Shown: one piece after another, positions 1,025 to 37,758 of the stretch
Layout: each line of letters starts with the position of its first letter
How positions within the stretch are numbered: position 1 is the stretch's first letter
From: a virus
Taxonomy: Duplodnaviria; Caudoviricetes
Virus record (IMG/VR): IMGVR_UViG_2588253758_000004
DNA: 64,000 bases
Reading direction: 5' to 3' (one strand)
Translations under genes and position numbers: made by a program
Notes under the pieces: model-generated
Seen by the model: the letters and a program-made list of their open reading frames with translations, nothing else
Told to the model about the DNA's origin: nothing
The model's database searches: none

Positions 1025-2617
1025 CTAATAGTTAAATCCGTTATAGACCGCCGGAGCCGTCACGATGCCACTGTCGCCGTTGTCAGTTCCGCTTTTGAAC
1101 TTGTACCAGCTATCACGCAGGTAGTAGCAAAGCAGATAATCAAGACAGTCTGAAAGGTGTCCATACTTCTCATACTTTACACCGGTTTTGGGGTCGGTGG
1201 TCTTATGCTTTGCTTTCGTGCCGTCTTCGTTGCGGAGCTGGTAAATCAAATCCTCAGTAAGTTTGCGGCACTTCAAATCAATCTCAATCGTCCAGCCATT
1301 GTAGCCGTCAAATAGCTCGTTGGCAAACTCGCATCGTGTCACCTGTGGTGGCTGTTTGCGGAGCAGTTTCAGTTTTGGACGCAAAATCCCCTTGCCAAAA
1401 GTCTCCATAATTACCGTGTAGTTGTTCACCCCGTCTTCCGTAGCAGAAGAGCGTTGCAATCCTGACGGGTCGCCTGTAACATCTACGCCGCCAATATGCT
1501 TCTCTCGATAGAGTTTTTGTTGCATCCGTCGAGCTAATGCCGGAGTGTTGTTCTCTTTGTCTTGTGGTTTGCCTAATATCTCCTCTATGATGTAAAGTTT
1601 CTTATTCTCATAATCCACCTGAGCCAGCAGTACTGACATTTGCGGAGCAACGTTGAAGTCCCAAACGGTAATCAGTGGCCTGGTTGGGTCATAGACTTTC
1701 TCTTTGAGTCCTGTGATAAGGTGCTTTGAGCCGTCAAACTTTCCGTAGATTGCCATATCGTTTGCCTCCACAAAATCCCAGTTACCATATAGCAGACGCT
1801 CTTTGGTGGCTTGGTCAGATATTTTGTTGAGTGCCGCCTCGTAGGTCTGACGAAAGCCGATATCGGGGTTATCAAAGACGCTGAATGGAACGTAAAACTC
1901 ACCCTCTCGACAGGTAACTCTATCGCCGTTATCGTCCTGCACAAATCGCCCACGCACCCAGTTGGTCGTCGGGTTGGTGGTAAGTAACATCTTCGACACC
2001 ATAAAGGTCTCGTGCGTTCGCCAACGAAGACGGGAAAACAAAACCTCTATAGCCTTCTGCGAAATCTCTGACACCTCATCCACGGCACATATAGTCGCCT
2101 CCATCGACCCAAACCGCTCAAAGTTCGGGTCAGAGGGTTGGTCGGCCATATCGAGCATCAAGATCACCGAGTCGTTCCAAAACCGCAGCGTACCGGCAAT
2201 GTTGTTGACACGGTAATGCACATCTTCTACAAGCCCCCACCGCTTAATCACCATTCGAATCGTGTTCCAAGTCGATTCTTTGAGTGACTTCAATGTCTTA
2301 CGGGCGACAACCGCCCGAATCTCCCCAAACCTGATACAACTACTCACCAACCAAACCGAAGCAAGGTAACTCTTGCCTCCGCCGGCCGCGCCACCTCCGA
2401 GTATGAGTTGTGGAATGTTGTGATTACCGCATTTGCCACAAAATGGCTTGTATTGCGGATTGTTGTTTTGGTCGTGACCGATGAGTTGTTGCTGGATAAA
2501 TCCACCACACAACGGACACTCCGGCTGCAACAGTTTCCATAGCTCATACTGCTTTGGCGAGGGGCTGAAGTCGATGTGGAGATTGTCGGGCGCAATGAGT
2601 TTACGCAACTTCCCCAT
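1025..2617 (-). CDS. terL: Terminase large subunit
   Basis: Walker A GGGAAGGGKS, Walker B AVDEVSE, coupling motif TTNP, nuclease WDFN and HLSDCLDY. Confidence 0.92.
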   Translation of the reverse strand: MGKLRKLIAPDNLHIDFSPSPKQYELWKLLQPECPLCGGFIQQQLIGHDQNNNPQYKPFCGKCGNHNIPQLILGGGAAGGGKSYLASVWLVSSCIRFGEIRAVVARKTLKSLKESTWNTIRMVIKRWGLVEDVHYRVNNIAGTLRFWNDSVILMLDMADQPSDPNFERFGSMEATICAVDEVSEISQKAIEVLFSRLRWRTHETFMVSKMLLTTNPTTNWVRGRFVQDDNGDRVTCREGEFYVPFSVFDNPDIGFRQTYEAALNKISDQATKERLLYGNWDFVEANDMAIYGKFDGSKHLITGLKEKVYDPTRPLITVWDFNVAPQMSVLLAQVDYENKKLYIIEEILGKPQDKENNTPALARRMQQKLYREKHIGGVDVTGDPSGLQRSSATEDGVNNYTVIMETFGKGILRPKLKLLRKQPPQVTRCEFANELFDGYNGWTIEIDLKCRKLTEDLIYQLRNEDGTKAKHKTTDPKTGVKYEKYGHLSDCLDYLLCYYLRDSWYKFKSGTDNGDSGIVTAPAVYNGFNY

Positions 2618-3051
2618 TAGGCTATCTCGATTGTGATGTTTTTCTCTTTGCTGAGAATTTCGTTCAATCGGTCAGAGGTTGATCTCGACTCTGTTACCTT
2701 TCCCTTGATGGTGTTATTTCCAACAATGATGCAACCAGCCGAGTCAGCGTCCGTTGTTCCGGAGTGAATAAGAATACCCAGAAAATGAGGCACATCGTGC
2801 AGGTATGGCAACACTCGTTTGAACTTTGGGCTCATCTGCATCGTCACTTTGTAGGTGCCGTATGGTATAGCAGTTTCTGCATAGACCTTCTCTTTGCATC
2901 GGCACGCTATGCCCTGCGGAGTGTCGGGACATAGCAACGGGAGGATTCTCACTTTGTCCTCAATGGTGTTGCAGAAGAACTCGCCGTCGATGAACAGGTC
3001 GCCCACGGTGTAGGTTTCGCCTTTGAATTTGCGTTTTAGAAGTAGTTTCAT
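2617..3051 (-). CDS. DUF5675-family protein, putative endolysin (peptidase)
   Basis: LKR..YTVGDLFIDG.FFCNTIED, TAIP.GTY, GILIHSG, SAGCIIVG signature; lies next to membrane/lysis genes. Confidence 0.75.
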   Translation of the reverse strand: MKLLLKRKFKGETYTVGDLFIDGEFFCNTIEDKVRILPLLCPDTPQGIACRCKEKVYAETAIPYGTYKVTMQMSPKFKRVLPYLHDVPHFLGILIHSGTTDADSAGCIIVGNNTIKGKVTESRSTSDRLNEILSKEKNITIEIA

Positions 3052-3078
3052 CTTTGAATGTATTTCGATTTACACTCA

Positions 3079-3110
3079 AAGAATAGGCGTATTGCTCGCT
3101 GAAAGTTTGA
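3079..3110 (-). promoter_or_regulatory. Putative phage-sigma late promoter (copy 1)
   Basis: Minus strand TCAAACT-N17-CTATTCTT, 28 nt upstream of the DUF5675/terL start. Confidence 0.75.
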
Positions 3111-3128
3111 ATTTTATGCCCTAACGCC

Positions 3129-3161
3129 AAAAAAGCCGAAACGTATCATACGCCTCGGCTT
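3129..3161 (-). terminator. Rho-independent terminator after HU gene
   Basis: AAGCCGA..TCGGC hairpin followed by T6 on the minus strand. Confidence 0.75.
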
Positions 3162-3180
3162 ATAAAATATCATATCAATC

Positions 3181-3489
3181 CTACTTTTTCTTTGCCTCTT
3201 TTGAAAGTTTGTCTATCGTTTCATCAGTGGGCTTAAACTTTCGAGTAGCTCGGAATGCAACCGATGCTTTAGAAGGTATTTGCACTTGTGAGCGATTCTT
3301 TGGGTGAACTGTCACTTTGGGTTTATGATATTTGAGAGAAAACTTACCAAAGTTGGCAATATTGACCTCTTCCCCATTTTCCAAAGCCCTTAAAATCTCT
3401 TCAAACAATGGTTCTACAATTTTATTGACCTCCCACTGTGCGTAATCGGTTTTCCGTGCTATTTCGGCTACAAGTATTCGTTTATCCAT
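3181..3489 (-). CDS. HU/IHF-family DNA-binding protein
   Basis: L..GEEVNIANFGKF, HPK..IP.K..V.F motifs; own Bacteroidetes -7 box TATCTTTG at 3516-3523 (minus). Confidence 0.88.
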   Translation of the reverse strand: MDKRILVAEIARKTDYAQWEVNKIVEPLFEEILRALENGEEVNIANFGKFSLKYHKPKVTVHPKNRSQVQIPSKASVAFRATRKFKPTDETIDKLSKEAKKK

Positions 3490-5602: not shown

Positions 5603-6376
5603 TTAAATTTTAAAGTGGGTACGTGTTTTCTCCTGCTTTGCCATTACAAAGCCTTCTGTTCCCTCTTGTCTGAGTCGTGATGCACAAACGGCAGCGATAT
5701 TGAGAGTTGCCGTAACGTCTGCACCAGCATCGTGGGCATCATCTAAGAGGATTCCGAAACGCTCGGCAAGTATCTCCAACTTGTAAGAGGTTACATCCGC
5801 TCGATTACAAAAAGCCAGTCGCCCAAGGTCGATGGTGTCGATGTAGTGAGGCTGAAAATTGCCGTAAAAGTCGGTCGTTCCGGCAAAGCACTTCTCAAAC
5901 TCTTTACTCAGCGCGGCATAAGCCATCATCTGCTGCAAGAAACCAATGTCGAAAGTGATATTCTGCCCGATGAGTATCGGTTTGCATTGAGCACCTTTGG
6001 AGAGTGTGTGCTTTTGGACAAATTCAACAACCTCAGTGGCAACCTCCTTAATGTCAAAGCCCATCAGATTGAGTGTCTCCATCGTGATTGCCGTGTATGC
6101 CAAAGCCTCTTTTTCATACTTCATCAGTACGCCCTCTGCCTCCTCTTCAATAGCGTGGCGAGTTTTCAGCACCTTACGTTTGGGAGTACCACCAATATCC
6201 TGCTTGTTGTATGGGGTGATATACTTCTGGTACGCTCCCAAAACCTCCCAGTTATCCAATCTTACTGCCTGCATCGCTATCTGAGTGCAGGCACAATCCC
6301 TACAATCCAATCCACCGGTCTCAAAGTCCAGAACAATGGCGGTATATATCTTTGGTTCTACCTTTGGCGCTGCCAT
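5603..6376 (-). CDS. DEDDh 3'-5' exonuclease (DnaQ/epsilon-like)
   Basis: ExoI LDFETGG, ExoII GQNITFD, ExoIII AHDAGADV. Confidence 0.9.
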   Translation of the reverse strand: MAAPKVEPKIYTAIVLDFETGGLDCRDCACTQIAMQAVRLDNWEVLGAYQKYITPYNKQDIGGTPKRKVLKTRHAIEEEAEGVLMKYEKEALAYTAITMETLNLMGFDIKEVATEVVEFVQKHTLSKGAQCKPILIGQNITFDIGFLQQMMAYAALSKEFEKCFAGTTDFYGNFQPHYIDTIDLGRLAFCNRADVTSYKLEILAERFGILLDDAHDAGADVTATLNIAAVCASRLRQEGTEGFVMAKQEKTRTHFKI

Positions 6377-6891
6377 CTGCAAATCTTTTTATAGGTTTCG
6401 TAAATCTTCATATCGAACTCCTCGATCGTGCCGTTGTTCTCAATCACGCAGTCGTAATAGCCCAGCGGTAGTGGTTCTCGGTCTTCGTCTCGCATAATCC
6501 GACATAGTGGTATGCCTCGCTCAAGCAAGGTGTCCATTGTCGCCTCCACACGAATGGAGATAATATCGAACTTGTGGCTCTTATTCTCTTTGAGGAATCG
6601 CAGTCCACGCTCATCGACCACGTAGGCACAGTAACCTTTGGGCGGCACCTGCTCCTCAAGGGCGAAGTATTCATAGTCGGCAAATTTGGTGTAGGATAGC
6701 ATCTGGGAGCGTCCGAAACGGTGAGCATTTTTGATGTAGTAATGGTCCACACCCTCAATTTCACCCTCTCGCATCGGGCGTGTCGTGTGCGATACAATCA
6801 GATACACGCCTAACTGCTCTTGCAGCATTTTTGAAAGGTAGGTCTTGCCCGAGCCGCTTGCCCCGACAATGGCGATAATAGTTGGTTTCAT
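6358..6891 (-). CDS. gmk: Guanylate kinase-like nucleotide kinase
   Basis: GASGSGKT P-loop, SHTTRPMREGE..GVDHYY. Confidence 0.88.
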   Translation of the reverse strand: MKPTIIAIVGASGSGKTYLSKMLQEQLGVYLIVSHTTRPMREGEIEGVDHYYIKNAHRFGRSQMLSYTKFADYEYFALEEQVPPKGYCAYVVDERGLRFLKENKSHKFDIISIRVEATMDTLLERGIPLCRIMRDEDREPLPLGYYDCVIENNGTIEEFDMKIYETYKKICRWQRQR

Positions 6892-6903
6892 TGTTGTGAA
6901 AAG

Positions 6904-7287
6904 TTAGATGATTTCTAAAATTGTTGATTTGTAAGAACTTAAACTATTAGCCCCCAAGTAATCGCTGTATCTGATTTGGGCGGAGACTACAATCACGTTA
7001 TCTTTTAGGTTTTTAATCTTCTCGGCGTACTCTTGGAGCGTATCATCCCAAAGCACCATTTCGACTGCATCGTTGTTCTGCTGGAGGGTGATTTTCAGAA
7101 AGCGGCGTTTCTCACCGGTCATCTTGTCTGTGTAGGATTTCTCTTCTGTCTCGATGACCGTGGCACAAATGGCCACACGCTTACTCTCATTATCGAGGTT
7201 GAGCACATCAGCCAAATTCATATAGGCGGCTCGACCCTTGAACAACTCTTTGCTCTTGGAGGAGTCGAAAATCCCTCTGTAATCGAC
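6904..7287 (-). pseudogene. dnaE: C-terminal OB-fold segment of DnaE, in frame with 7288..9081 but cut off by one TAA
   Basis: Frame continues GVG*VDYRGIFDSSKSKELFKG...; OB-fold-like TGEKRRFLKITLQQ..VEMVLW. Confidence 0.7.
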
Positions 7288-9081
7288 TTATCCCACGCCC
7301 GAAAGGGCTATTTGTTGCATCGACCAATAGTGAGGTTTGAGCACCATATCGGCAGGAAAATCCTGTTCACTGAGCGTAAATCCTAATAGCTCGGCAGCCT
7401 GTTGAACGATGCGGTAGCGGTCGGTTATCACATCAACACCCTCGATATTGTCAAAGCACCCGGCAAGAATCATATTGCGAATATGCCGTGCATTGACCGG
7501 GACACGTGATTGTTGCTCAGTATTGTCGGGGTCATCCCAATACTCATAGCGTTTGAGTTTGTGTTTAAATATCCTATGGATAAAGTTCTCAAGCGAAGTG
7601 AAGAGCCCGTTTTTGGTTCGTTCTTCGATAACATAGCTTGCCGCCTTGCTTCCGACCATCTTTATGCGGGTAAGCGACCAGAAAATCTTATCCTGAGCAT
7701 AGTCGGTTGTAAAGTGCACATCAGACACATTGATATCCGGAGGCACAATCTTAGCAACTGAGCATTGCTCCATCTCGGACATCAACGTCGATATCTCCTT
7801 GTCATCGGCCCATTGGAGTGCAACGGTGTAGAATGCCGTAGGAAAGTTGGCTTTGAGGTAAGCTCCAACATAGGCGGTAATGGCATAAGCGGTTGCGTGC
7901 GACTTATTGAAAAGATAGGACCCACCGGACTCAATCATCTCCCAAATCTTCACGGCATCTTCCTCTGGGCAACCTCTCTGGGCAGCTCCACTGAGAAACT
8001 TCTCTTTCATAGCGTGGATCTTGTCGATACGCTTTTTTGAGATGAGTTTCAGCAAGCTTACACCTTCACCAAGCGAGAAACCACCCACCTCACGAGCTAT
8101 CTGAGCCAGTGATTCCTGATAAGTCAGCTGACCAAAGCTATCTTTGAGTGCATCGTAAGTCCCCCATAGGTATTGAGGTTCGACCTCGCCACGTTTGCAG
8201 AGCAGGTATTTCTCTGCCGAGCCTGATTCTAACGTTGCCGGGCGATACAAGGCATTAGCCGCTATCAGGTCATTGATACAGTCGGGGCGCATATCCATCA
8301 GATACTTGGTCATTCCACGAGATGAGAATTGAAACACATTTTGGCAATGACCATCAGAGAGAATCTGATAGGTTTTTTCATCATCCAAATCTCCTTTCAC
8401 AATCTCTTCAAACGATAATCCGGCATTATACACCCTGTTGCATTCATTGATGGTCTGATTGATTTTAGATAGCTCCTTGATGCCCAAACAGTCGTTTTTG
8501 AGCAGTCCGACCTCATCTAATGAGTAGCCGTCAAACTCGGACACCAGAACACCATCTACTTTTTTAATAGGCGTATAGTCGAAACACTCCATCGGCTGAC
8601 CGTCTTTGGTTTCGGGGGTAATAAGTATGGCTGAAGCGTGAACCGATGCGGAGCGAGGTTGCCCCATCAGCGGACGAATATCCTCAATCACCTGCGGATA
8701 ACGAGTAATAAAATCCTTAACCTTCCTGTTGGTTGCCGCCAGCTTAAAGAGGTCTGTCCACGTCATTTTATCATCGTCAAAAATGGCGGTGATATAGTTG
8801 GTGATACTCAGTGGCACTTTGTGCACACGGGCAACGTCCTTGATAGCGGCTTTGATTTTTAGTGTAGTCAGTGTTCCGGCGGAGAACACACGCTGTTTGC
8901 CGCCTGTGTTATATCGTCTCTCCAAATACTCCTTGACCTCACCACGGCGGTCTGATTGGTAGTCGATATCCACGTCAGCCAATACGCCACCGGTGCCCTG
9001 CAAGTAACCATCTCCCACGCAGCTATCCAAGACTGCCACTAAATCGGGAGCTTGTTTTACCTCTATCTTATTTATTCTCAT
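7288..9081 (-). CDS. dnaE: DNA polymerase III alpha, C-terminal fragment (catalytic palm/fingers)
   Basis: ADVDIDY, SVHASA, LLKNDCLG, VFQF, ALYRP, YLFNKSHATAY, PPDINVS. Confidence 0.92.
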   Translation of the reverse strand: MRINKIEVKQAPDLVAVLDSCVGDGYLQGTGGVLADVDIDYQSDRRGEVKEYLERRYNTGGKQRVFSAGTLTTLKIKAAIKDVARVHKVPLSITNYITAIFDDDKMTWTDLFKLAATNRKVKDFITRYPQVIEDIRPLMGQPRSASVHASAILITPETKDGQPMECFDYTPIKKVDGVLVSEFDGYSLDEVGLLKNDCLGIKELSKINQTINECNRVYNAGLSFEEIVKGDLDDEKTYQILSDGHCQNVFQFSSRGMTKYLMDMRPDCINDLIAANALYRPATLESGSAEKYLLCKRGEVEPQYLWGTYDALKDSFGQLTYQESLAQIAREVGGFSLGEGVSLLKLISKKRIDKIHAMKEKFLSGAAQRGCPEEDAVKIWEMIESGGSYLFNKSHATAYAITAYVGAYLKANFPTAFYTVALQWADDKEISTLMSEMEQCSVAKIVPPDINVSDVHFTTDYAQDKIFWSLTRIKMVGSKAASYVIEERTKNGLFTSLENFIHRIFKHKLKRYEYWDDPDNTEQQSRVPVNARHIRNMILAGCFDNIEGVDVITDRYRIVQQAAELLGFTLSEQDFPADMVLKPHYWSMQQIALSGVG

Positions 9082-9832
9082 TGCTCAATCTCTCTTTTGC
9101 TGTTTTAAATATGGTGGAATCTATCTCTATCCCTATAAATTTGCGCCCTGTGTTTCGGCAGGCAACACCGGTGGAGCCACTGCCCATTGCAAAGTCGATT
9201 ACCGTGTCGCCCTCTTTGGTGTAGGTGCCAATCAGATACTCTAAAAGAGCAACCGGTTTCTGGGTCGGATGCAGGGCTGAGGTCTGTTTGTCGGTTTTGA
9301 ACTTCAATACACTGCGAGGGTATCGCTCCGTAGAGTCGTAGTTACCGTAATTGTCGTGTTTGCGGTATATGTCACCTGCACGGCATTTTAGTTGATGCTC
9401 TGGGGCTACTACTTTGCGTTTATGTCCATAAGTTTTGATTGGATAGTATGCCGGAAGTTTTTGGTAGAAGACCAGTATATCTTCGTGGCATTTGAGCGGC
9501 ATACGCTTAGCATTGAGAAACCCTGTGCCTTGGGTCTTCTCCCACACCCAGTTATAGCGGAGGTTCTTCAGGTTTGATGAACCCAGCGTTGAAGTGAAAG
9601 GTTGCTGAGCAAAGAGCAAAATCGCTGTATTTGGTTCGGTAATCATATCCAAGCAGCTCCACATCTGCGTTGTGTCGATGACCGAATCCCATTTGCAGTT
9701 TGTGGTGCCGAAAGGAATATCCGAGAGCACCAAATCCGCGTTAAAACCGCTATCAGCCAACTGAGGCATCACCTCAAGGCAATCGCCCAAGTAGAGGGTC
9801 GTATTACTGTCTATGATTGTTGGTTTTACCAT
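9068..9832 (-). CDS. DNA N6-adenine/N4-cytosine methyltransferase (beta class)
   Basis: GDCLE, motif IV DIPF, HPTQKPVAL, motif I DFAMGSGSTG. Confidence 0.9.
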   Translation of the reverse strand: MVKPTIIDSNTTLYLGDCLEVMPQLADSGFNADLVLSDIPFGTTNCKWDSVIDTTQMWSCLDMITEPNTAILLFAQQPFTSTLGSSNLKNLRYNWVWEKTQGTGFLNAKRMPLKCHEDILVFYQKLPAYYPIKTYGHKRKVVAPEHQLKCRAGDIYRKHDNYGNYDSTERYPRSVLKFKTDKQTSALHPTQKPVALLEYLIGTYTKEGDTVIDFAMGSGSTGVACRNTGRKFIGIEIDSTIFKTAKERLSNENK

Positions 9833-11540
9833 TGCCGAAGTAGTTAATCATCCATAAGTAATCTCTATGGTCGAACACTACATCGTCGCCATCAATCAAT
9901 TGATCTGCATATACTACCTGCTCCGTGCCATCACGAATGACGAGCAGTTGAGCATCTTTATCAAGTTTGAGAACCTTGCCGTTGTCGAGTGTCATTTCTA
10001 CATAGGCGTTGGTTTTCATCTCGTTTACGAACTTAGTCGTCTGTGTCGGATAGAGCCCGGCACGCTCGGGGAGCAGAAAACGCTCGAAAAGCAAATCAAA
10101 CTTTATCGGGTCGATAAGCGTTAGCCCCAGCAAGTACATCACCAAGCATCCGCCAGCCGAACCACGACCGCAACCCACCAATATACCATTGGCACGAGCC
10201 CAATTCACCGTATCGTACTGCACGAGCATATAGTCAACATTGTCGGTCGATTCAAGGATATAGACCTCGTGTTCCAACCGTTTACGATACTGCTCACTCT
10301 TGTCGGCAGGGACAAGCCGTGCGAACCCCTCTTCAAGCAGAGAGAGAAACATCGTGTGTCGGTCGTCATATTTTTGTTGCTCCTCGGGGGTCATATCGTA
10401 TCGGGGCATAAAATTTCTATCGGTCTCATACATCGCCATAGCTTTTTCGGCTATCTCGACTGTTGGTTGGCACATCTTCTCAAAAAGCTTCTCCACATTC
10501 CACTTGTCGTTAAAGAGTGGTTTGAGTACCGCAAAATGCTCATCCACATCTTTGAAGTATTGCTCATCACTCTGTCTGTGTGCTGCTCCGGTTGCCACCT
10601 TACCCAGCAGGATTTTGTTTTTCGCATCATCGCGGTCCAGATAGTAGCAATCCACTATTAGAATAGGGTCTATCTCGAATGAAAGGGTTAGCGGATTGCC
10701 AAAATTCTCAAAGAAAGTGGCAGCAGAGTTCAGCACCTCCACATCAATTCGGTCAGCTTTATACTCGCTCAAATCAACCTGAAAGTAGCACCGCTCAAAT
10801 CTCTGTTTGAATCCGCTAATCAGACGACGGTTCGCTTTGAGCCACCCTCCAGAGAGTTTGCCGAAGACCAATATGTTGCCTTCACCGTATTGGTTTAGGG
10901 TCTCGACAGAGATAGTTTGATTCTCAGAATCGACCATCACTGCCTTTTGAATCCGAAGCAGGTTTTGAAGACCTATCTGATTAATTGCATAGACCTTCAT
11001 CTCTACTTTCTCATCTAAATGCTCTACTGTGAGCGAGTAGCCGAAAACGTGTTTAATTCCGGCAGCCTTGCACTCCTTTTGTAGGTTGAGTGTTGCCGCC
11101 ATTGTGTTATAGTCGCATATTCCGATGGCTGAGTGGCCAAGGTATTTCGCCTTCCGTACCCAGAGCGACAAATCGCCCGAACCGCTAAGAAGCTCATACG
11201 GAGTATGCACACCCAAGTTCACAAATGGAGTTTGTAATTGAGTCGGTTTGCGTTTGCCTACATATTTAAGGATGTTGAAGCGGAACTCCTCTCGCAAATC
11301 GTAGTAGTACCAGTTGTTGCCAAATGGGAAAACCACATAAAAGATTCCCTCTTCCATCAACACCTCAGGGCTCTCCATCAGGTTAAACTTCAATTGCTCG
11401 GCATCGGATTTGAAAATGGAGGTTACCCTCGTTAGGTCGGCAAGAAAGAGTTTGCCAAACTCTTCTATCTCAATAACCTCATCATCTAATTGACTGTATG
11501 ATATTTTGTTGGCTTCAAGCCAAGGTATAAGTTCGTTCAT
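9804..11540 (-). CDS. dnaE: DNA polymerase III alpha, N-terminal fragment (PHP domain to ERFL motif) with C-terminal Hint-like tail
   Basis: VHTPYELL..G, IGICDY, GRGSAGG, LGLT.IDP, LLFERFLLPER. Confidence 0.92.
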   Translation of the reverse strand: MNELIPWLEANKISYSQLDDEVIEIEEFGKLFLADLTRVTSIFKSDAEQLKFNLMESPEVLMEEGIFYVVFPFGNNWYYYDLREEFRFNILKYVGKRKPTQLQTPFVNLGVHTPYELLSGSGDLSLWVRKAKYLGHSAIGICDYNTMAATLNLQKECKAAGIKHVFGYSLTVEHLDEKVEMKVYAINQIGLQNLLRIQKAVMVDSENQTISVETLNQYGEGNILVFGKLSGGWLKANRRLISGFKQRFERCYFQVDLSEYKADRIDVEVLNSAATFFENFGNPLTLSFEIDPILIVDCYYLDRDDAKNKILLGKVATGAAHRQSDEQYFKDVDEHFAVLKPLFNDKWNVEKLFEKMCQPTVEIAEKAMAMYETDRNFMPRYDMTPEEQQKYDDRHTMFLSLLEEGFARLVPADKSEQYRKRLEHEVYILESTDNVDYMLVQYDTVNWARANGILVGCGRGSAGGCLVMYLLGLTLIDPIKFDLLFERFLLPERAGLYPTQTTKFVNEMKTNAYVEMTLDNGKVLKLDKDAQLLVIRDGTEQVVYADQLIDGDDVVFDHRDYLWMINYFGNGKTNNHRQ

Positions 11541-12574
11541 CGTTGTTGGATTTTAGTAAGTTTATATTCGAGTGGTGTTTTAAGGCGATGGGCAAAAATT
11601 TCAAATATCTCTGCTCGGGTGAGGTCTTGCCAATCCTTCGTGGGGTCGGCAATGTCTGCAATGAGCACATCGAAGTAGCTGGCAAGCTCCGAAGCTGTCT
11701 GTTTGATAGCCTCCACCGCATCACCATCATAGCCCAGAACCACCGTTTTGACCCCTTTGGACTGAAGTTTATAGATTTGCACATTGGAGATTTTCTTGCC
11801 GAAGGTGGCAACCACTGCAATCTCTCGGCTGTCGTATAGTTCCAGCTTGCGAGTGAGTGCCACTACATCAAAAATGCCCTCGACAATAATCACCGTGTCA
11901 GTCTCATCCTCGATGACGGCATCGTAGTTATAGAGCAACTTGATAAAGTCGTTCTGCGTGGAGTTATTGAAGCGTCTGATTTGATATTCGCCCCTGATTT
12001 TGGCTTTGCGGTTGTAGCTGTCAATTTCGTCCTTACTCCAGATATGGCGAGCCACATAGCCCACCGTATCGCCTTCATCTATGACCGGGAAAATCACATA
12101 GTCATCAAATCGGCGGTTGAGCCCCTTAGTGGTGCCGACCGGAAAATATTCGTAGTCATCCATACTGAAACCACGGTTTTTCAGGTAAGGGTGCGAGAAG
12201 GTTCGTCTGTAAAAATCCGGCAGCTCGACAATACCCAACGAGTCGTCAATCTCATCGTCCTGCTCCAAGGGGAACAGCAGTTCTGGGTTCAGCTCCGCTT
12301 CAAGGTCGATGGTCTGCGTTACCGCCAGATCCATACGCCCGATATCTTCCAACAGCCTACCGAGAGTCTGGTTTGAGCGACCGCACGAAAAGCAGTGGCT
12401 CATAAACTGTCTCTTGCGCTGACTTTCCTTGCCGATGTATATGCCAAACTTACCCTCCTTGCCACAGTACGGGCAGCGACAAATCAGGTTCTTATTGCCG
12501 CCGTCCCGCTGTGCCGAAAGGTGTCGTGTCAGCTCCTCAATAAGATACTGGGTCTCTGTCTTAGTCAGTATCAT
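11537..12574 (-). CDS. dnaG: DNA primase (Zn finger + TOPRIM; start revised to MILTK)
   Basis: CPYC..HCFSC zinc-binding domain, VEGIFD, YDGD. Confidence 0.88.
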   Translation of the reverse strand: MILTKTETQYLIEELTRHLSAQRDGGNKNLICRCPYCGKEGKFGIYIGKESQRKRQFMSHCFSCGRSNQTLGRLLEDIGRMDLAVTQTIDLEAELNPELLFPLEQDDEIDDSLGIVELPDFYRRTFSHPYLKNRGFSMDDYEYFPVGTTKGLNRRFDDYVIFPVIDEGDTVGYVARHIWSKDEIDSYNRKAKIRGEYQIRRFNNSTQNDFIKLLYNYDAVIEDETDTVIIVEGIFDVVALTRKLELYDSREIAVVATFGKKISNVQIYKLQSKGVKTVVLGYDGDAVEAIKQTASELASYFDVLIADIADPTKDWQDLTRAEIFEIFAHRLKTPLEYKLTKIQQR

Positions 12575-13937
12575 GGGTCGGAGCATCAAGGGTGGAAGTT
12601 TTTTCTGCGTCGTAGAACACCTCATTATCGTAGTCAGTGACGATATGAATGGTGTCGCCCTTTTTAAAGAATCGGGACTTGGCAATATGGAGTCGCATAC
12701 GGTTGAAATGCCTCTCCGCTGCGGTTTGGTTCAAACTAATAAGGTGGGTACATGGGCGTGCAAGCCCTTTCGCCTCGGAACAGTTGTATTCGGTCAATAC
12801 ATTTTTGTCGTTGTTGAGCCAGTCACGGTTCTCGATGGTAGCTTGATAAGTTACCACCATCCAAACTTTCTCATCGCCTGCCAAGTCTTTGAGGTCATTG
12901 GCAACGGCTATGCGTTTACTGCGTTCGTGTTCAGCATTCCACAATCGGCGACTGGCATCGGTCAATAGGTCCATTGAGTCGATCACCACAATGTCGGGTT
13001 GTCGTCCTGTCTTTTTTCGATATTCGGCAATGCTGTTTTTGATGTCAAGCGTTGATACTCTTGCGTTAAATCGTGGGTAGGTGCGAACTGCAATAGAGCC
13101 TTTGAGGGCACTGACACTCTGTTCATATCGTTTCATCTCCAACTCACTGATTTTGCCACGCTCGAACTGATAGGCGTTTTTCCGTATCAATCCACCCGAA
13201 TAGGCGTTCAACGCCTCCTCTTCCGAGCCTTCCAACTGAAAATGCAGCGTATGCAGTCCATCTTCTTGATTGGCAGCAACCCCAATATGCTTTACGATAT
13301 GCGATTTACCAACTCCCGTAGAGGCGAGGAAACAAGTAAGCTGACCACGCAGGTTACGACCATCATTTAGAGCATCTAAATATTCGATGTAGAAGCGTGA
13401 AACCTGTGGCAGGGAGGACATTTTTTCTTCCAGTTCACGCTGTCGATTCTTTTTGTATCGCTCCGAAAAGGTAGCCCCGACATCAATAAATGCGTTTGAC
13501 TTGAGTGTGAACCCCGATAACCACTCAGCATACTCTTTCAACAGGGCTTCCGCTTTCTCCTGTTTGCTCTGATTGTAGAGCTTGCCCACCTCGGTATAGA
13601 CATTTTGAAGCCGCACACCCTTGATGTAGTTCTCGAACATATCAAGCACAATCTCAGAGGTCGAGTCACCATCATACTCAACGATGGTGTTTATCAACTC
13701 TATCGCATCGTAGTCGCTATTGAAGGCTTGTGAAAGGATAGCGTAGGATGGAGGTGTTTTGTAGTTCTTGAAGTGATTGGCGAAGAGCTCCTGTACTCGC
13801 TGAAACGAGCGGTCAGGCAGAAACTCCTTCTCCATATACTGCACAAGAACACTGCACACCCCATCGTTACGCATAGCCGTGGCATATAACTCATAGAGGA
13901 ACTCAACGCTCAGAGGATTAGTTTTTCTCTTCTCCAT
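12561..13937 (-). CDS. dnaB: Replicative SF4 DNA helicase (DnaB/gp41-like)
   Basis: ASTGVGKS, FQLE, VVIDSMDLL, TYQ, AKSR. Confidence 0.88.
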   Translation of the reverse strand: MEKRKTNPLSVEFLYELYATAMRNDGVCSVLVQYMEKEFLPDRSFQRVQELFANHFKNYKTPPSYAILSQAFNSDYDAIELINTIVEYDGDSTSEIVLDMFENYIKGVRLQNVYTEVGKLYNQSKQEKAEALLKEYAEWLSGFTLKSNAFIDVGATFSERYKKNRQRELEEKMSSLPQVSRFYIEYLDALNDGRNLRGQLTCFLASTGVGKSHIVKHIGVAANQEDGLHTLHFQLEGSEEEALNAYSGGLIRKNAYQFERGKISELEMKRYEQSVSALKGSIAVRTYPRFNARVSTLDIKNSIAEYRKKTGRQPDIVVIDSMDLLTDASRRLWNAEHERSKRIAVANDLKDLAGDEKVWMVVTYQATIENRDWLNNDKNVLTEYNCSEAKGLARPCTHLISLNQTAAERHFNRMRLHIAKSRFFKKGDTIHIVTDYDNEVFYDAEKTSTLDAPTHDTD

Positions 13938-32719: not shown

Positions 32720-34534
32720 TTATTGGTTTGATATATTGAGATTTACTTCACAATCGAATGTTGCTCTGTGTGTGATGTCGTCTGCTGTCACCTCAACGCT
32801 TTTCCCTATGCGTGGAGGGTTGTTCCAATACTCATCAGCATAGGTGTCGCTACTTGTTCTGAACCATCGAAATTCGCTTTCGTGAATGAGGTGTGTGATG
32901 TTCTCGCCTGCTCGAAACACCGATGCCGATAAAATGGTAGAGATTAGCCCATTCTTGAATGTATTTCCCTGCGAGGAGTAAACGACCACATTAACTGCCG
33001 AGATATTCTCTCGCACCTGCTCATCGAGGTCTTCCCAGCGAATGGTTACGTCTTTAAGCTGAATGGTCTCCTTAGTCCACTTGAAGCGTCCACTTGCAAA
33101 ATGCCCCGTGCCATCACGGTTGATAACAAAAGAGTCATCACACGAAGAAATTGATCCATCTTCGTTGAGTTTGAGCAGTGGATTTTGGATCGTGCCGCCG
33201 ATACCTCCTTTTGAGAACCAAGCTCCGTAGTCCTCCGTTTCGTTGAGTCGTCCGTCTGTGGGTTGGTATTGAGAGGTGTTCTCTCCGGCTTCGAGTTGCG
33301 GAGCCGTAACATATGGCTCACTTTGCTCGCTCACTAAGCGAATAATCATTGTACTCGCAGATGAGTGCTTAACTGTAAAGACGATTTTGTGTCGTCTCCA
33401 TTCGTTTGCGGTTTCAGTTACCAGTGGGCCGATGCGATGTTCGTCCTGATAAAATGTGATTGCGCCAAGCCCAGAATGAACCCATATCGAAAAACAATAC
33501 TTTCGCCCAACACGCTCTTCACGCCAAGCGGAGCTTTGAACAGTCAGTGCGGAGTTGGTTGATAGACGGCGTACTTTCCCAATACCAACAGGAGAAATCA
33601 TATCAACCACAGCAGAATTGGTAAAAGCACATTCAGCTGAGTTCAGAATAACGTTCTTATGAATCTTGCCTACATAAAAGGTCGAAGCAAAGCCGTTCTC
33701 ATCACCAGCCGTCAATGTTCCGGCGATATTGACGTTGCGTGTAGCGTAGAGATTCTGAAAGTATGCTCCATAACCTTCGAGCATCCCAAACACGGGGTCG
33801 ATTATTCCTGTAATCTTACCCATACGTGCCTTAGTCGCTTTGGCAAAAGTGGCTATATCCGAAAGACGAATCACGTTCAGGTCGGTGATTTCGCACCACT
33901 CATCACCCGACAGGTTCGGATTGATTTTCAAGGTTCGTGCATACTGACTTGGATAATCCATCACGATAGCCGAAAGTCGATAGCTCCACTCGGTTGTAAT
34001 GTCGAAACTATCCTCTCCGTCCGTCTCATCGGTGTAACCAATCGAGAGCTTTGCTCCGTTGATAGTTTTTGAAGCACGTACACGAAAAGAGACGATGAGC
34101 ATTTCAGGGTTGCTCACCTTGCCGCTAATTGGAAAAGAAAATTGAGTAGTGGTTTTACGAGCTTCACGGATATACAGCAATGAATGTTCAAAACCAAGCC
34201 CGTCAATCACGTCCATATAGGGCGAATCACTGTCCGATGCAGTCATATATAGCGCACCGCCACGAGAGCGGTCCACGAGACTGGTGACACGCACAAAATC
34301 GAGCAGCTCGCCACTCTTTGGCTCATCACCCTCAAAAAGTGCACCTATAAAGTAGTGAGACTCCTTGCCAGCGATAATATCCGTACCAGTTTCAGTCACC
34401 ACCATCAGCGAATAGATCAAGTTCGGCGTATCGAAATACTGCCTCCGAACCACATCGCCAACACGCAAACCCTGAACCTTCTTGGATTCAGGGTCAATCG
34501 CTATCTTATATCGTGAGTATCTGTTTACTGCCAC
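32720..34534 (-). CDS. Tail protein with carbohydrate-binding-like and Ig-like domains
   Basis: GDVVRRQYFD, APQLEAGE..SQYQP, GNTFKNG..FRWFR..ATFDCEV. Confidence 0.7.
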   Translation of the reverse strand: MAVNRYSRYKIAIDPESKKVQGLRVGDVVRRQYFDTPNLIYSLMVVTETGTDIIAGKESHYFIGALFEGDEPKSGELLDFVRVTSLVDRSRGGALYMTASDSDSPYMDVIDGLGFEHSLLYIREARKTTTQFSFPISGKVSNPEMLIVSFRVRASKTINGAKLSIGYTDETDGEDSFDITTEWSYRLSAIVMDYPSQYARTLKINPNLSGDEWCEITDLNVIRLSDIATFAKATKARMGKITGIIDPVFGMLEGYGAYFQNLYATRNVNIAGTLTAGDENGFASTFYVGKIHKNVILNSAECAFTNSAVVDMISPVGIGKVRRLSTNSALTVQSSAWREERVGRKYCFSIWVHSGLGAITFYQDEHRIGPLVTETANEWRRHKIVFTVKHSSASTMIIRLVSEQSEPYVTAPQLEAGENTSQYQPTDGRLNETEDYGAWFSKGGIGGTIQNPLLKLNEDGSISSCDDSFVINRDGTGHFASGRFKWTKETIQLKDVTIRWEDLDEQVRENISAVNVVVYSSQGNTFKNGLISTILSASVFRAGENITHLIHESEFRWFRTSSDTYADEYWNNPPRIGKSVEVTADDITHRATFDCEVNLNISNQ

Positions 34535-34557
34535 TTCTTCAAGGTTGTTGTACCTTT

Positions 34558-34589
34558 AAGAATAGTGCTAAATGACTTCTTGGGTTTGA
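34558..34589 (-). promoter_or_regulatory. Putative phage-sigma late promoter (copy 4)
   Basis: TCAAACC-N17-CTATTCTT, 24 nt upstream of GTG start at 34534. Confidence 0.75.
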
Positions 34590-34750
34590 TGCTGCAATAA
34601 AAAAACGAGATAGACATTGATAAAAGAGAATGATTCAAGTATTACACACATTACACTATGAGGTTGATCCCTGAATTTATGTTTATTTTAAATTACTGTG
34701 TGCTATGCGAAATTTATTACTTAGCATATACAACTCATTAAATTATTCAA

Positions 34751-34758
34751 TATCTTTG
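34751..34758 (+). promoter_or_regulatory. Bacteroidetes -7 promoter box for RM cassette
   Basis: TATCTTTG 28 nt upstream of XRE gene. Confidence 0.6.
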
Positions 34759-34786
34759 CTGAAAATACCAATTCATAGGTTGGATT

Positions 34787-34996
34787 ATGAAGAAATTAAA
34801 TAGACTAAAAGTCGTTCTCGTTGAAAAAGAAAAAACAGGGAAATGGCTATCTGAACAGTTAGGGAAAGATCCTTCAACTGTTTCAAAATGGTGTTCCAAT
34901 AAGATTCAGCCATCCGTAGAGATGTTAGATGAGATAGCCGTTTTGCTAAATGTAGATGTGCGAGAATTATTAAACAAGAGTAAATCTAAAGTATGA
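34787..34996 (+). CDS. XRE-family HTH regulator
   Basis: NRLKVVL.EK..TGKWL..QLG....TVSKWCSN..QP. Confidence 0.9.
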   Translation: MKKLNRLKVVLVEKEKTGKWLSEQLGKDPSTVSKWCSNKIQPSVEMLDEIAVLLNVDVRELLNKSKSKV

Positions 34997-37758
34997 CAAC
35001 ACAATCAGAACAGGCTTTAGAGCAGGGGTTGATTAAGACTCTGGTCTCTATGAATTATCAAAAGATTGAAATAGCGGATGAAAATGCTATGGTTGCCAAT
35101 TTTCGCAGTCAGCTTAATAAGCATAATAATACAGAACTTACAGATGATGAGTTTAATCGCATAATGATTCATCTGGAGAACGGTTCGATATTCGCAAAAG
35201 CAGAGAAACTTCGTAATCGTTTTCCTCTGACTCGTGATGACGAGTCGGTAAAGTGGATCGAGTTTCTAAATACTCAGGAGTGGTGTAAGAACGAGTTTCA
35301 GGTTTCAAATCAGATTACTGATGAGGGTAGGCGCAAATGCAGATATGATGTTACTATTTTGGTGAATGGATTGCCACTGGTGCAAGTGGAGCTGAAAAAG
35401 CGAGGCATAGAGCTTAAGCAAGCATACAGTCAAGTTCAACGTTACCACAAAACAGCATTCAAAGGACTATTTAACTATATACAGATATTTGTCATTTCAA
35501 ATGGCGTAAATACCCGTTATTTTGCCAATAACCCCAATCAAGGCTATAAATTCACGTTTCCTTGGGCTGACTTCAAAAACAACCACATAGACCGCTTAGA
35601 CATCTTTGCTGCAATGTTTTTTGAACAATGCACGTTGGGGAAAATGCTTGCCAAATATGTAGTGCTGCATCAATCGGATAAGTGCTTAATGATTCTAAGA
35701 CCCTATCAATTCTATGCGGTTGAAGCCCTACTTGATAAGGTGGCTAATTCTGTGAAGAATGGCTACATTTGGCATACTACGGGTAGTGGCAAAACCCTGA
35801 CTTCGTTTAAGGCAGCTCAGTTGATCGCAGAGATGAGCGATATTGACAAGGTGCTTTTCGTTGTTGATAGGCACGATTTAGATACCCAAACTAAAAAAGA
35901 ATACGATGCTTTTGCCCCGGGGGCTGTGGATAGCACTGACAACACAAAAGAGTTAGTCAAAGCATTGCAGGGTAAGAAGAAATTGATGATAACAACGATT
36001 CAAAAGCTGAATCACGCAGTACAAAAAGACAGATATAGTAAAAGTTTACAGGGAGTAAAAGATAAGAATATCGTAATGATATTTGACGAGTGCCATAGAA
36101 GTCAATTCGGAGATATGCACTCGAATATAACAGGATTTTTTAGTAAGATTCGTTATTTTGGGTTTACAGGTACTCCAATTTTTGCCGACAATGCTAACAA
36201 TGGTCGCACCACAAAGGATATTTTTGGTGAAAGACTTCACGAGTATCTAATAAAAGATGCTATTGCAGATGAAAATGTACTTGGCTTCTTGGTGGAGTAT
36301 CATGGCAAATGGAAACGAAAAAATGAAAACGACAAACAAGTAAAATCCATTGATACAGCGGAAGTTTTATTGAAGGATGAAAGGATAGCTTCGATAGCAG
36401 ATTTTATACTCTCGAACTACAACTCCTCTACATACGAAAGGGATTTCAATGCTATGTTTGCGGTTGGTGGTGTGAAGATGCTTATCAAATACTACGATAT
36501 GTTCAAGAGTCGCAACCATGACCTAAAGATTGCTACGATTTTCACATATACTCAGAACGAGGAATCGGAAGATGAGTTTACTGGTTTAGGGCAAGGTTTT
36601 GCCTCCACTCAAAACACTAGAGATATTTTAGAGCGGTATATCAAAGATTATAACGAAACATTCGGCACAGACTTCGATACAGACCACTTTGGGCTCTACT
36701 ATGACGACATCAATAAGCGAATGAAAAATCGCCAAATCGACCTTCTGATAGTATCTGATATGTTTCTTACGGGTTTTGATGCCAAGAAACTCAATACGCT
36801 TTATGTAGACAAAAATCTCAACTATCACGGTCTTTTGCAAGCCTTCTCTCGAACCAATCGAGTGCTTAACGAAAAGAAAAAGTTTGGCAAAATCACTTGT
36901 TTTAGAGACCTTAAACAGCAGACAGATGATGCCATAAAGCTCTATTCCAACAACAAATCTTCGGAGGTGGTTTTGATGAAGCCCTACGAAAAACTTGTCG
37001 AGAGATTCAATGAGATGGCAGCAGAATTTTTATCTCACTTTCCTACTATCAAAAGCGTTGGTGGTTTAGACTCAGAGTTAGATAAACGTCGTTTTGTAAT
37101 TCTCTTTAGGGCAATGCTTAGACTGAGAAATGAAGTCAAAGGCTATAATGAATTTGATGCAGAAGACCTTACAATAGAAGAGCAACGATTTGCCGACTAT
37201 CAAAGCAAATACCTTGATATGTCTAACGAGTTTGCCATAACCTCTGAAAAAGAAGATGCCGAAAGTATCCTACAAGATATAGACTTTGAGTTAGAGTTAG
37301 TACACAGAGACATTATCAATGTGATGTACATTCTCTCACTGCTTCAAGACCTTAAACCTGAATCGTCATCTTATCCTAAAGATCGAAAAGCAGTTCTTGA
37401 TACGATGGATTCAGACCCTGATCTGCGTTCCAAAATTGTCTTGATTGACAACTTTATTCGCCTGCACATTGACGGGCGGCAGAGTGATGATTTGCCAGCG
37501 GATATGGAGGGCGATTTGGATAAATACATCGCTACCCAAAAGGCTATTGCCATTGAGCAAGTTGCTGTCGATGAAGGCATTGATAGCTCTTTGCTACACG
37601 AATATGTATCAGAGTATGAGTATTTAGGGAAACCCAAAAACGAGATAATTAAGCGAGCAATTGACCCATTGAAATTATCATTTATGGATGCTCAAACGAA
37701 AAAGAAGAGCCTAATCGACAAGATGAAAGATATTATTAAACTATTTAGCTGGAACTAA
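34993..37758 (+). CDS. hsdR: Type I restriction endonuclease subunit R
   Basis: RYDVTILVNGLPLVQVELK, HTTGSGKT, DECHR, FTGTP, MFLTGFD, QAFSRTNR. Confidence 0.97.
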   Translation: MTTQSEQALEQGLIKTLVSMNYQKIEIADENAMVANFRSQLNKHNNTELTDDEFNRIMIHLENGSIFAKAEKLRNRFPLTRDDESVKWIEFLNTQEWCKNEFQVSNQITDEGRRKCRYDVTILVNGLPLVQVELKKRGIELKQAYSQVQRYHKTAFKGLFNYIQIFVISNGVNTRYFANNPNQGYKFTFPWADFKNNHIDRLDIFAAMFFEQCTLGKMLAKYVVLHQSDKCLMILRPYQFYAVEALLDKVANSVKNGYIWHTTGSGKTLTSFKAAQLIAEMSDIDKVLFVVDRHDLDTQTKKEYDAFAPGAVDSTDNTKELVKALQGKKKLMITTIQKLNHAVQKDRYSKSLQGVKDKNIVMIFDECHRSQFGDMHSNITGFFSKIRYFGFTGTPIFADNANNGRTTKDIFGERLHEYLIKDAIADENVLGFLVEYHGKWKRKNENDKQVKSIDTAEVLLKDERIASIADFILSNYNSSTYERDFNAMFAVGGVKMLIKYYDMFKSRNHDLKIATIFTYTQNEESEDEFTGLGQGFASTQNTRDILERYIKDYNETFGTDFDTDHFGLYYDDINKRMKNRQIDLLIVSDMFLTGFDAKKLNTLYVDKNLNYHGLLQAFSRTNRVLNEKKKFGKITCFRDLKQQTDDAIKLYSNNKSSEVVLMKPYEKLVERFNEMAAEFLSHFPTIKSVGGLDSELDKRRFVILFRAMLRLRNEVKGYNEFDAEDLTIEEQRFADYQSKYLDMSNEFAITSEKEDAESILQDIDFELELVHRDIINVMYILSLLQDLKPESSSYPKDRKAVLDTMDSDPDLRSKIVLIDNFIRLHIDGRQSDDLPADMEGDLDKYIATQKAIAIEQVAVDEGIDSSLLHEYVSEYEYLGKPKNEIIKRAIDPLKLSFMDAQTKKKSLIDKMKDIIKLFSWN

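Follow-up and report, generated by a model that had tools for sequence, protein, structure and literature searches.

A second DnaE gene in two pieces

The window analysed here, a stretch of 64,000 nucleotides from the IMG/VR virus record IMGVR_UViG_2588253758_000004, belongs to a complete bacterial chromosome of 3.15 Mb, and its positions 1 to ~34,500 are a prophage. The prophage carries a second DnaE that is broken between FERFLLPERAG and (L)ADVDIDY; the host's single-chain DnaE is encoded elsewhere on the chromosome by a 1253-aa open frame which is unbroken at the prophage's break site. The two pieces of the prophage polymerase, which we call g1 and g2, flank a methyltransferase gene that went unmentioned in the preliminary description of this DNA. 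The three genes are tightly packed minus-strand open reading frames (ORFs), each in a different frame, and they overlap: the methylase begins 29 nt before the end of g1, and g2 begins 14 nt before the end of the methylase. The features of the locus are:

9804-11540, minus strand: g1, the N-terminal piece of DnaE, 578 aa (Pfam PHP, 2.1e-15, and DNA_pol3_alpha, 9e-28; PHROG 405 and 13169)
10158-10169, minus strand: the GRGS motif of g1 (residues 458-461), first part of the palm
9807-10055, minus strand: the g1 tail (residues 496-578), a probable split-intein N-fragment remnant (BLASTP, hhalign, fold search, omega)
~9873-10007, minus strand: the conserved core of the tail (residues 512-556), apparently intein block B and the strands that follow it
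9068-9832, minus strand: the methyltransferase gene, 254 aa, N6_N4_Mtase (PF01555, 4.3e-25; PHROG 67, 8.5e-69)
7288-9081, minus strand: g2, the C-terminal piece of DnaE, 597 aa (Pfam DNA_pol3_alpha, DNA_pol3_finger and HHH_6)
8977-9081, minus strand: the g2 head (residues 1-35, MRINKIEVKQAPDLVAVLDSCVGDGYLQGTGGVLA), a putative split-intein C-fragment remnant (length, collinearity, pattern, omega)
8962-8979, minus strand: ADVDID, the catalytic Asp motif of g2
7288-7290, minus strand: the TAA stop of g2, at a position occupied by Ser in the 725-aa proteins of relatives (tblastn, DNA)
6904-7287, minus strand: continuation of the DnaE frame, 127 codons, C-terminal part (similarity to the L010 protein, see below)

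The features of a C-family polymerase alpha subunit (PHP domain, GRGS palm, three catalytic Asp residues, fingers and HhH domain) are all present, spread over g1 and g2, and the Pfam DNA_pol3_alpha profile is divided between them, with positions 4-99 in g1 and 94-260 in g2. The catalytic parts are divided as well: GRGS is in g1, and the Asp-x-Asp strand and the third Asp (in KNDCLG) are in g2, which also has the fingers, FNKSH and the HhH domain. YLFNKSH, the site at which cyanobacterial DnaE is split, is unbroken at residue 391 of g2. The preliminary description had placed GRGS and the catalytic Asps on different fragments and had found the cyanobacterial split site intact here, and the motif positions bear out both statements. 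The gene between the halves scores 89.4 bits on PF01555, whose cut-off is 26.7 bits. At 9707-9721 (minus strand) the methylase has S-D-I-P-F where its relatives have D-L-P-Y, which we take to be a motif of the DPPY type.

The first piece ends ...LLFERFLLPERAG, followed by 83 extra residues (496-578, the "tail") and a stop; the second begins MRINKIEVKQAPDLVAVLDSCVGDGYLQGTGGVLA (the "head") and then continues DVDIDY. Comparison with the host DnaE sets the extras at g1 residues 496-578 and g2 residues 1-33, after which comes LADVDIDY, and once these are discounted the loop is exactly as long as in the host enzyme. The ORFs and this comparison agree with the earlier claim that the DnaE motif is broken and carries an extra tail and an extra head; the head had been given ~29 extra residues, and is 33 residues long when measured against the host DnaE. 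The tail's final ~22 residues are a linker, which overlaps the methylase start.

Similarity of the g1 tail to inteins

Two alignments were used for sequence comparison, A1 with 14 distinct tails and A2 with 11 heads. By BLASTP the window tail is 45% identical over 42 aa to the mini-intein of the ribonucleotide reductase P0049 (E 1e-9), and it also matches the split intein N-terminal fragment (IntN) that ends the ribonucleotide reductase P0042 (E 2e-6); hhalign of A1 against P0049 gives a probability of 94.2% (E 1.2e-7). A1 had 49 matches at E <= 1e-3 among 1.84 billion representative proteins, 25 of which were scanned with Pfam. Fourteen of these 25 are DnaE N-halves or fragments, including P0043, and the non-DnaE inteins among them are P0039, P0042, P0045 and P0049 (E 2e-5 to 9e-4). 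The ribonucleotide reductases P0042 and P0039 each terminate in a split IntN bearing Cys1 and T-Y-N-H, the mini-intein of the reductase P0049 has Cys1, T-G-N-H and Ser-His-Asn followed by Thr, and in P0045 an IntN accompanies a fragment of a family A polymerase. Of the real inteins, those of P0049 and P0042/P0039 come closest to the DnaE tails. The P0049 fragment also starts with a split-intein C part (…GILVHN, then C), besides its complete mini-intein.

Searched against PDB sequences, A1 had 14 matches at E <= 10, headed by four inteins that are aligned in one shared block-B register: the Mja TFIIB mini-intein (0.0022), the Aes123 PolB1 split intein (0.025), PI-PkoII (0.066) and the Pab PolC intein (0.086). 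In every alignment DKDA of the tail falls on the TxxH motif of the inteins (TGNH, TYNH, TANH). Three of the 14 tails match the Pfam family Intein_splicing, the best at E 0.0057; on this family the tail of the window reaches 15.3 bits, far below the 35.8 cut-off, and P0042 and P0049 reach threshold. One tail also matches DUF5646 (9.1e-5). A search with g1 residues 470-578 among longer proteins found no match, which is weak evidence by that search's own standard. Three short proteins in which a tail or palm segment is joined to a sliding clamp, LeuA or DUF1538 (P0021, P0005 and P0024) are probably assembly chimeras and were excluded from use.

The AlphaFold model of the tail has a mean pLDDT of 59.7, with five strands at 68-82 and ends below 50. 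Compared with 48,161 PDB chains by VIA-align, its top three matches are inteins (Z 5.1, 5.1 and 4.9), and Hint-fold entries, aligned over their block-B regions, account for 14 of the best 50 rows. The model of the insert in P0043, a contiguous DnaE (mean pLDDT 57.9, ends below 50), has inteins as its top four matches (Z 5.9-4.7), and 30 of its best 50 rows are Hint folds. The predicted structure of the tail is consistent with an intein but is no proof of one. Descent of the N-side tail from an intein is well supported by the sequence comparisons, in which the resemblance to block B and the position of DKDA at TxxH, both pointed out in the preliminary description, recur in the same register (BLASTP, hhalign). 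The break also falls where that description had put it, at the usual linker position of split inteins, which is the canonical point of endonuclease insertion.

Loss of the splicing residues

At its N-terminal junction the window has Ala (PER-A-GL) and neither Cys nor Ser, and the block F Cys motif of class 3 is absent too; Ala at position 1, which inteins of class 2/3 can have, would not by itself speak against an intein. Among the 14 tails the junction residue is Cys in eight, Ala in four, Ser in one and Met in one, and seven of the eight Cys tails (PER-C-GL) come from one closely related contig group. None of the 14 has the block B Thr and His together. The C-terminal junction of the window (...GGVLA-DVDID) has no His-Asn and no Cys, Ser or Thr at +1. 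Five of the 11 heads, all of the type found in contig L011 (below), end ...GGHAS-LPDID, that is, with His-Ala-Ser where inteins have His-Asn-Ser. We read the junction Cys of the relatives' tails and the His-Ala-Ser of the L011-type heads as vestiges that have been lost in the window. The earlier statement that all splicing residues are missing (Ala at the junction, DKDA for TxxH, no His-Asn followed by Cys, Ser or Thr) is upheld in full. Because every splicing residue has gone, no peptide bond should be formed, and splicing in the window is excluded as judged by its sequence. The N-terminal part of the Hint domain is affected as well: only ~25 residues precede the block-B hairpin in the tail, against ~71 in P0049, so the block A subdomain has been lost.

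The vestiges, that is, the junction Cys in eight of 14 tails (seven of them from a single contig group) and the His and Ser kept by L011-type heads, might be taken to mean that the halves are joined after all, through non-canonical trans-splicing, RNA splicing or ribosomal bypass over the methylase. We consider this very improbable indeed, for the window lacks Cys1, the block B Thr or His, the terminal His-Asn and the +1 nucleophile, and even in the best-preserved relatives the terminal Asn is replaced by Ala and the block B His is absent. Nor is there an intron family at the locus, whose three genes each use a different frame and whose halves are separated by a functional gene of 765 nt, and the abutting halves of some relatives leave no room for an intron. 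Rfam found no intron-like RNA in positions 7000-12000, and a group I or II intron or other RNA element was rejected for this reason. The single sub-threshold row, a snoR12 match within g2 (8304-8390, minus strand; 29.9 bits against 39, E 0.013), is taken for chance.

The g2 head

At 35 aa the head equals the C part of the P0049 mini-intein in length; the corresponding part of the Npu DnaE intein has 35-36 aa. The alignment made by hhalign puts the start of the head, MRINKIE, on MKVKSIK of P0049, six residues past the end of the tail's match, so that tail and head are collinear with the P0049 intein. A pattern V..D..V..G...G is conserved in the 11 heads, and V.D..V..GYLQG.GG resembles W.I.V..EYLLGNGV. 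The head therefore stands as a putative IntC (intein C-terminal fragment), which fits in length, position and pattern only; its sequence similarity is not significant. The preliminary description had called it the start of an IntC, and of this the length, position and pattern stand, while the sequence comparisons (below) lack significance.

Split states and gap contents in relatives

By tblastn of g1 against the phage collection, matches that extend through the tail, as far as query residue 554-566, come from Bacteroides phage BS-TP1 (55% identity), from the Cellulophaga phages phi13:1, phiST and phi19:2, and from Tenacibaculum phage Larrie. Bacteroides phages of the DAC19 type also match through the tail. 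Megablast of positions 7000-12000 against the same collection gave no match. The polymerases of these and related phages are found in four states:

State 1, Cellulophaga and Tenacibaculum phages: abutting genes with shorter extras (...IIEGDDLIKY and a stop, then MKIINIEQNTAPKLVNGT-LPDIDTD)
State 2, BS-TP1 (L004): a Dda/Pif1-like helicase follows g1
State 3, DAC19 (L006, 3779-7603): a contiguous protein of 1274 aa that has ~58 aa inserted in frame at the site of the break
State 4, Chryseobacterium phage MA9V-3: contiguous, with no insert (FERFLNEGRVGKSLPDIDND)

P0043 is likewise a contiguous DnaE (1257 aa) with the insert, and so is P0041, which is a fragment. The block-F-like strand of the head is missing from P0043.

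A scan of viral contigs found 18 loci in which g1 is 55-70% identical to that of the window. All 18 have g1, 13 have the methylase next to it and 15 have g2 downstream; the three without g2 end too early to show it. With the DAC19 protein as query no related loci were found among the viral contigs, and with phi13:1 gp038 only two. The contents of the gap between the halves vary:

L009: the methylase alone
L010: the methylase and a Bro-N/NUMOD4/HNH protein (Pfam)
L011: the methylase and a 180-aa NUMOD4-HNH_3 homing endonuclease (Pfam)
L012 and L016: an L011-type endonuclease (ORFs)
L013-L015 and L017-L020: an L011-type endonuclease, as judged solely from identical spacing
L021: the methylase and two NUMOD4-HNH endonucleases (Pfam, ORFs)
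L023-L025: a PIF1-type helicase (Pfam, ORFs)
L027 (Cellulophaga-like): a GIY-YIG endonuclease gene, 2529-3167
L060 (a prophage from a different genus within the family of the host): none; the halves overlap

BS-TP1 and L023-L025 form one branch, in which a PIF1/Dda-type helicase gene takes the place of the methylase; L025 has a further 95-aa ORF without a family match. In L021 the region 6100-7300 has the two endonuclease genes of the gap and a one-base frame change exactly between the head (…GGHSALP) and DIDVD of the second half, and L027 has a stop inside the catalytic motif of the second half at ~3180-3330 (LPDI*VDSDF), which is a broken gene, an assembly error or an oddity.

The same cut with the same tails in 18 contigs and in cultured phages of Bacteroidota is therefore neither chance nor an assembly artefact, and the variable contents of the gap mean that the break is old and stable and that the gap is a site of gene turnover. 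The gap is thus a landing site where accessory and selfish genes come and go; that of the window has no homing endonuclease gene and contains the methyltransferase only. The locus as a whole has the layout of a fractured gene, two adjacent ORFs on the same strand with intein halves at the break, and the halves are catalytically dead.

Purifying selection and charge

Omega could be taken from five contig pairs with unsaturated synonymous change (the other five pairs were saturated). In the relatives the tail has values of 0.08-0.26 and the head values of 0-0.17, and the cores of g1 and g2 have values of 0.066-0.092 and 0.017-0.042, respectively. Purifying selection thus acts on tail and head alike in the relatives.

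The core of the tail is acidic in all 14 sequences (net charge -2 to -6), and the first 16 residues of the head have a net charge of 0 to +6, being positive in 10 of 11 heads (+1 in the window). Natural split inteins are described as assembling by "capture and collapse", in which an anionic stretch of IntN meets a cationic IntC, in a review (PMC11766414), and the same acidic/basic pairing is stressed by Dassa et al. (PMC2677866). By analogy, the parts retained in the tail and head would be the charge-paired capture parts of working split inteins.

The free-standing NUMOD4-HNH and GIY-YIG genes in the gaps of relatives raise the possibility that intein ancestry is irrelevant to assembly of the polymerase, or merely apparent: a free-standing homing endonuclease could have split the gene inside a pre-existing surface insertion, the palm interface would then hold the halves together and the tails would contribute little. 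The contiguous versions with a non-splicing insert (DAC19, P0043 and the P0041 fragment) and the lack of significant IntC similarity in the head fit this view, and genes fractured by endonucleases without any intein still work (cited in PMC2677866). We nevertheless hold it to be unlikely, since the tail is significantly similar to real inteins, the cut lies exactly at the canonical split-intein point and leaves a C part of 35 aa, and tail and head are both under purifying selection and show the acidic/basic pattern of split inteins.

The in-frame stop in g2

Across the TAA at 7288-7290 the frame remains similar to the 725-aa fused protein of L010 (63% identity over 223 residues spanning the stop). 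A restart is possible, with an ORF from a TTG at 7245; Pfam has no match at E 0.01 or better on the continuation at 6904-7287. The stop, which the preliminary description does not mention, is either a recent nonsense mutation or a sign that the last domain is made separately, as a third piece of the polymerase.

This stop bears on whether the polymerase of this particular prophage is a decaying relic whose split was inherited from a functional ancestor. Decay would account for the TAA where the 725-aa relatives have Ser, for the replacement of the catalytic-loop Pro (LADVDID against SLPDIDVD), for the loss of all of the vestigial intein residues that some relatives keep, and for the lack of a match at E <= 1e-30 in 15 genomes of the same genus, several of them incomplete. 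On the other side, the frame stays open for 127 codons past the TAA and keeps 63% identity to L010, from which it follows that the change is recent or tolerated; none of the other polymerase motifs is damaged; the prophage L060 likewise has A before DCDID; and the ORFs of g1, the methylase and g2 are all intact and their starts are coupled. On balance we doubt that the polymerase is a relic, although the chance is a real one.

A polymerase probably held together by an intein remnant

We think it probable that the prophage encodes a two-chain DnaE split within a dead, truncated intein remnant, and that this remnant most likely still docks the halves. An intein would once have sat at the active-site loop before the Asp-x-Asp strand and would have been split at the usual endonuclease-insertion point. 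The remnant would then have lost its block A half and every splicing residue, retaining the acidic block-B hairpin region on g1 and the 35-residue strand-forming peptide on g2, which correspond to the parts that meet first in working split inteins. Tail and head most likely pair as an intermolecular beta-sheet that brings ...PERAG beside LADVDID..., so that one palm domain would be rebuilt from two chains around the active site with no peptide bond. The overlap of the ORFs suggests that g1, the methylase and g2 are co-transcribed on one message and that their translation is coupled. The preliminary description had proposed a dead split intein domesticated as a non-covalent clasp, and this interpretation is supported in part: the clasp between tail and head is plausible, and docking, polymerase activity and the order of events we infer.

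Several findings weigh against this interpretation. About 46 residues of the intein are missing, block A included, so a complete Hint fold cannot form; the remnant appears to be half a Hint domain plus an IntC-like peptide and not a whole domain in two halves, and in this the preliminary description, which had a whole intein present as two halves, was mistaken. The similarity of the tail to inteins is confined to ~44 residues, and ten inteins from genomes of the host's phylum gave an hhalign probability of only 15% against the tail (P 0.0017), in the same register. The tail profile is somewhat promiscuous, since repeat-rich beta proteins, matched in several stretches, make up five of its 49 library matches; six of the 14 tails also have a weak E1-E2_ATPase match. 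Both structural models are of low confidence, and every Z is below 6, a range that possibly reflects a common arrangement; Foldseek with the tail model found nothing at E <= 0.001, with the Mja TFIIB intein at rank 2 and hedgehog at rank 3. For the head, the profile A2 had chance-level rows only in the PDB search and nothing relevant; hhalign gave P 0.38 against a mini-intein alignment and P 0.096 against P0049, over seven columns, though at the expected place; and the best BLASTP segment of the head against P0049 (E 0.004) lies on an unrelated part of that protein. The g2 of this genome carries a nonsense codon. Finally, the contiguous polymerases of DAC19, P0043 and P0041 retain the insert without any split, and docking therefore need not be the reason for keeping it. 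On a more tentative view, the persistence of the remnant in split and contiguous relatives alike suggests that it may have become a working part of the palm, which might for instance position the catalytic strand or contact a partner.

A stronger form of the docking proposal, in which a split intein stripped of its chemistry and half of its fold has been exapted as a permanent docking module and the break serves as a landing pad for swapped accessory genes, we put forward tentatively, as possible rather than probable.

Other features of the prophage

PHROGs matches in the prophage include terminase, tail proteins, SbcCD, RuvC, a sigma factor and a nucleotide kinase, as well as three further replication functions:

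12561-13937: DnaB helicase (PHROGs match)
11537-12685: primase (PHROGs match)
5603-6382: DnaQ-type exonuclease (PHROGs match)

The G+C content falls from 0.45-0.49 to 0.36-0.42 beyond ~34 kb. At ~34,000-35,000 it goes from ~0.47 to ~0.40, and gene orientation switches past the tail-fibre genes, which likely marks the end of the prophage.

Comparison with known systems

Inteins are usually viewed as selfish elements that are kept active or lost; if the above proposal is true, this is a clear natural case of the domestication of an intein into a docking device, under purifying selection across a family of Bacteroidota phages, and a C-family polymerase can withstand a break in its chain one residue from the catalytic aspartates. 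The ~45 and 35 residues concerned would form a very small natural heterodimerisation pair, and a candidate for a non-splicing tag, and the break marks a recombination hotspot for the exchange of phage accessory genes. The listings and abstracts on degenerate, inactive, non-splicing and remnant inteins hold no dead split intein at a DnaE break, and none is described in the accessible part of a 2025 preprint on actinobacteriophage inteins. Likewise, a split Pol III alpha is not described in the available portions of the literature on Cellulophaga phages, PMC3919608 and PMC4760082 included. A dead but retained split intein in a fractured gene is thus, as far as we have seen, new to print.

The closest published parallel is with the fractured genes of Dassa et al. 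(2009; PMC2677866), which have active split inteins and free-standing endonucleases, and which include three DnaE loci at other or unstated sites. As here, a replication gene, DnaE among them, lies in two adjacent ORFs on the same strand with intein halves at the break, an acidic N part and a basic C part, and a free-standing gene in the gap (HNH or GIY-YIG in the relatives of the window). The published cases keep the five catalytic residues and splice, whereas the window has none of these residues, no block A, and a methyltransferase in its gap. The cyanobacterial Ssp/Npu DnaE split intein, as cited there, also makes a DnaE in two chains, with N and C fragments of similar proportions, but at the site Y/CFNKSH, by active trans-splicing, from genes that lie far apart and are cellular, not phage-borne. 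The same paper cites two intein-free fractured genes, nrdA of the Aeromonas phage Aeh1, which is split by mobE, and the split gp43 polymerase, in which an essential phage enzyme consists of non-covalent pieces after insertion of a mobile gene, as we propose for assembly in the window. These have no intein-derived sequence at the break, and the break in the window lies within a conserved intein remnant.

By sequence the nearest inteins are those of the reductases P0049, P0042 and P0039, with 31-45% identity over the block-B half, and the C part of the P0049 intein has the same length of 35 aa (MKVKSIK against MRINKIE in the window); they differ in having Cys1, T-x-N-H and Ser-His-Asn followed by Thr, and in an N-terminal subdomain that is ~46 residues longer. 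Engineered splicing-dead split inteins serve as high-affinity docking tags, and their fragments bind tightly without catalytic residues. Such tags were built in the laboratory and have a complete Hint fold, whereas that of the window would be a natural and truncated counterpart.

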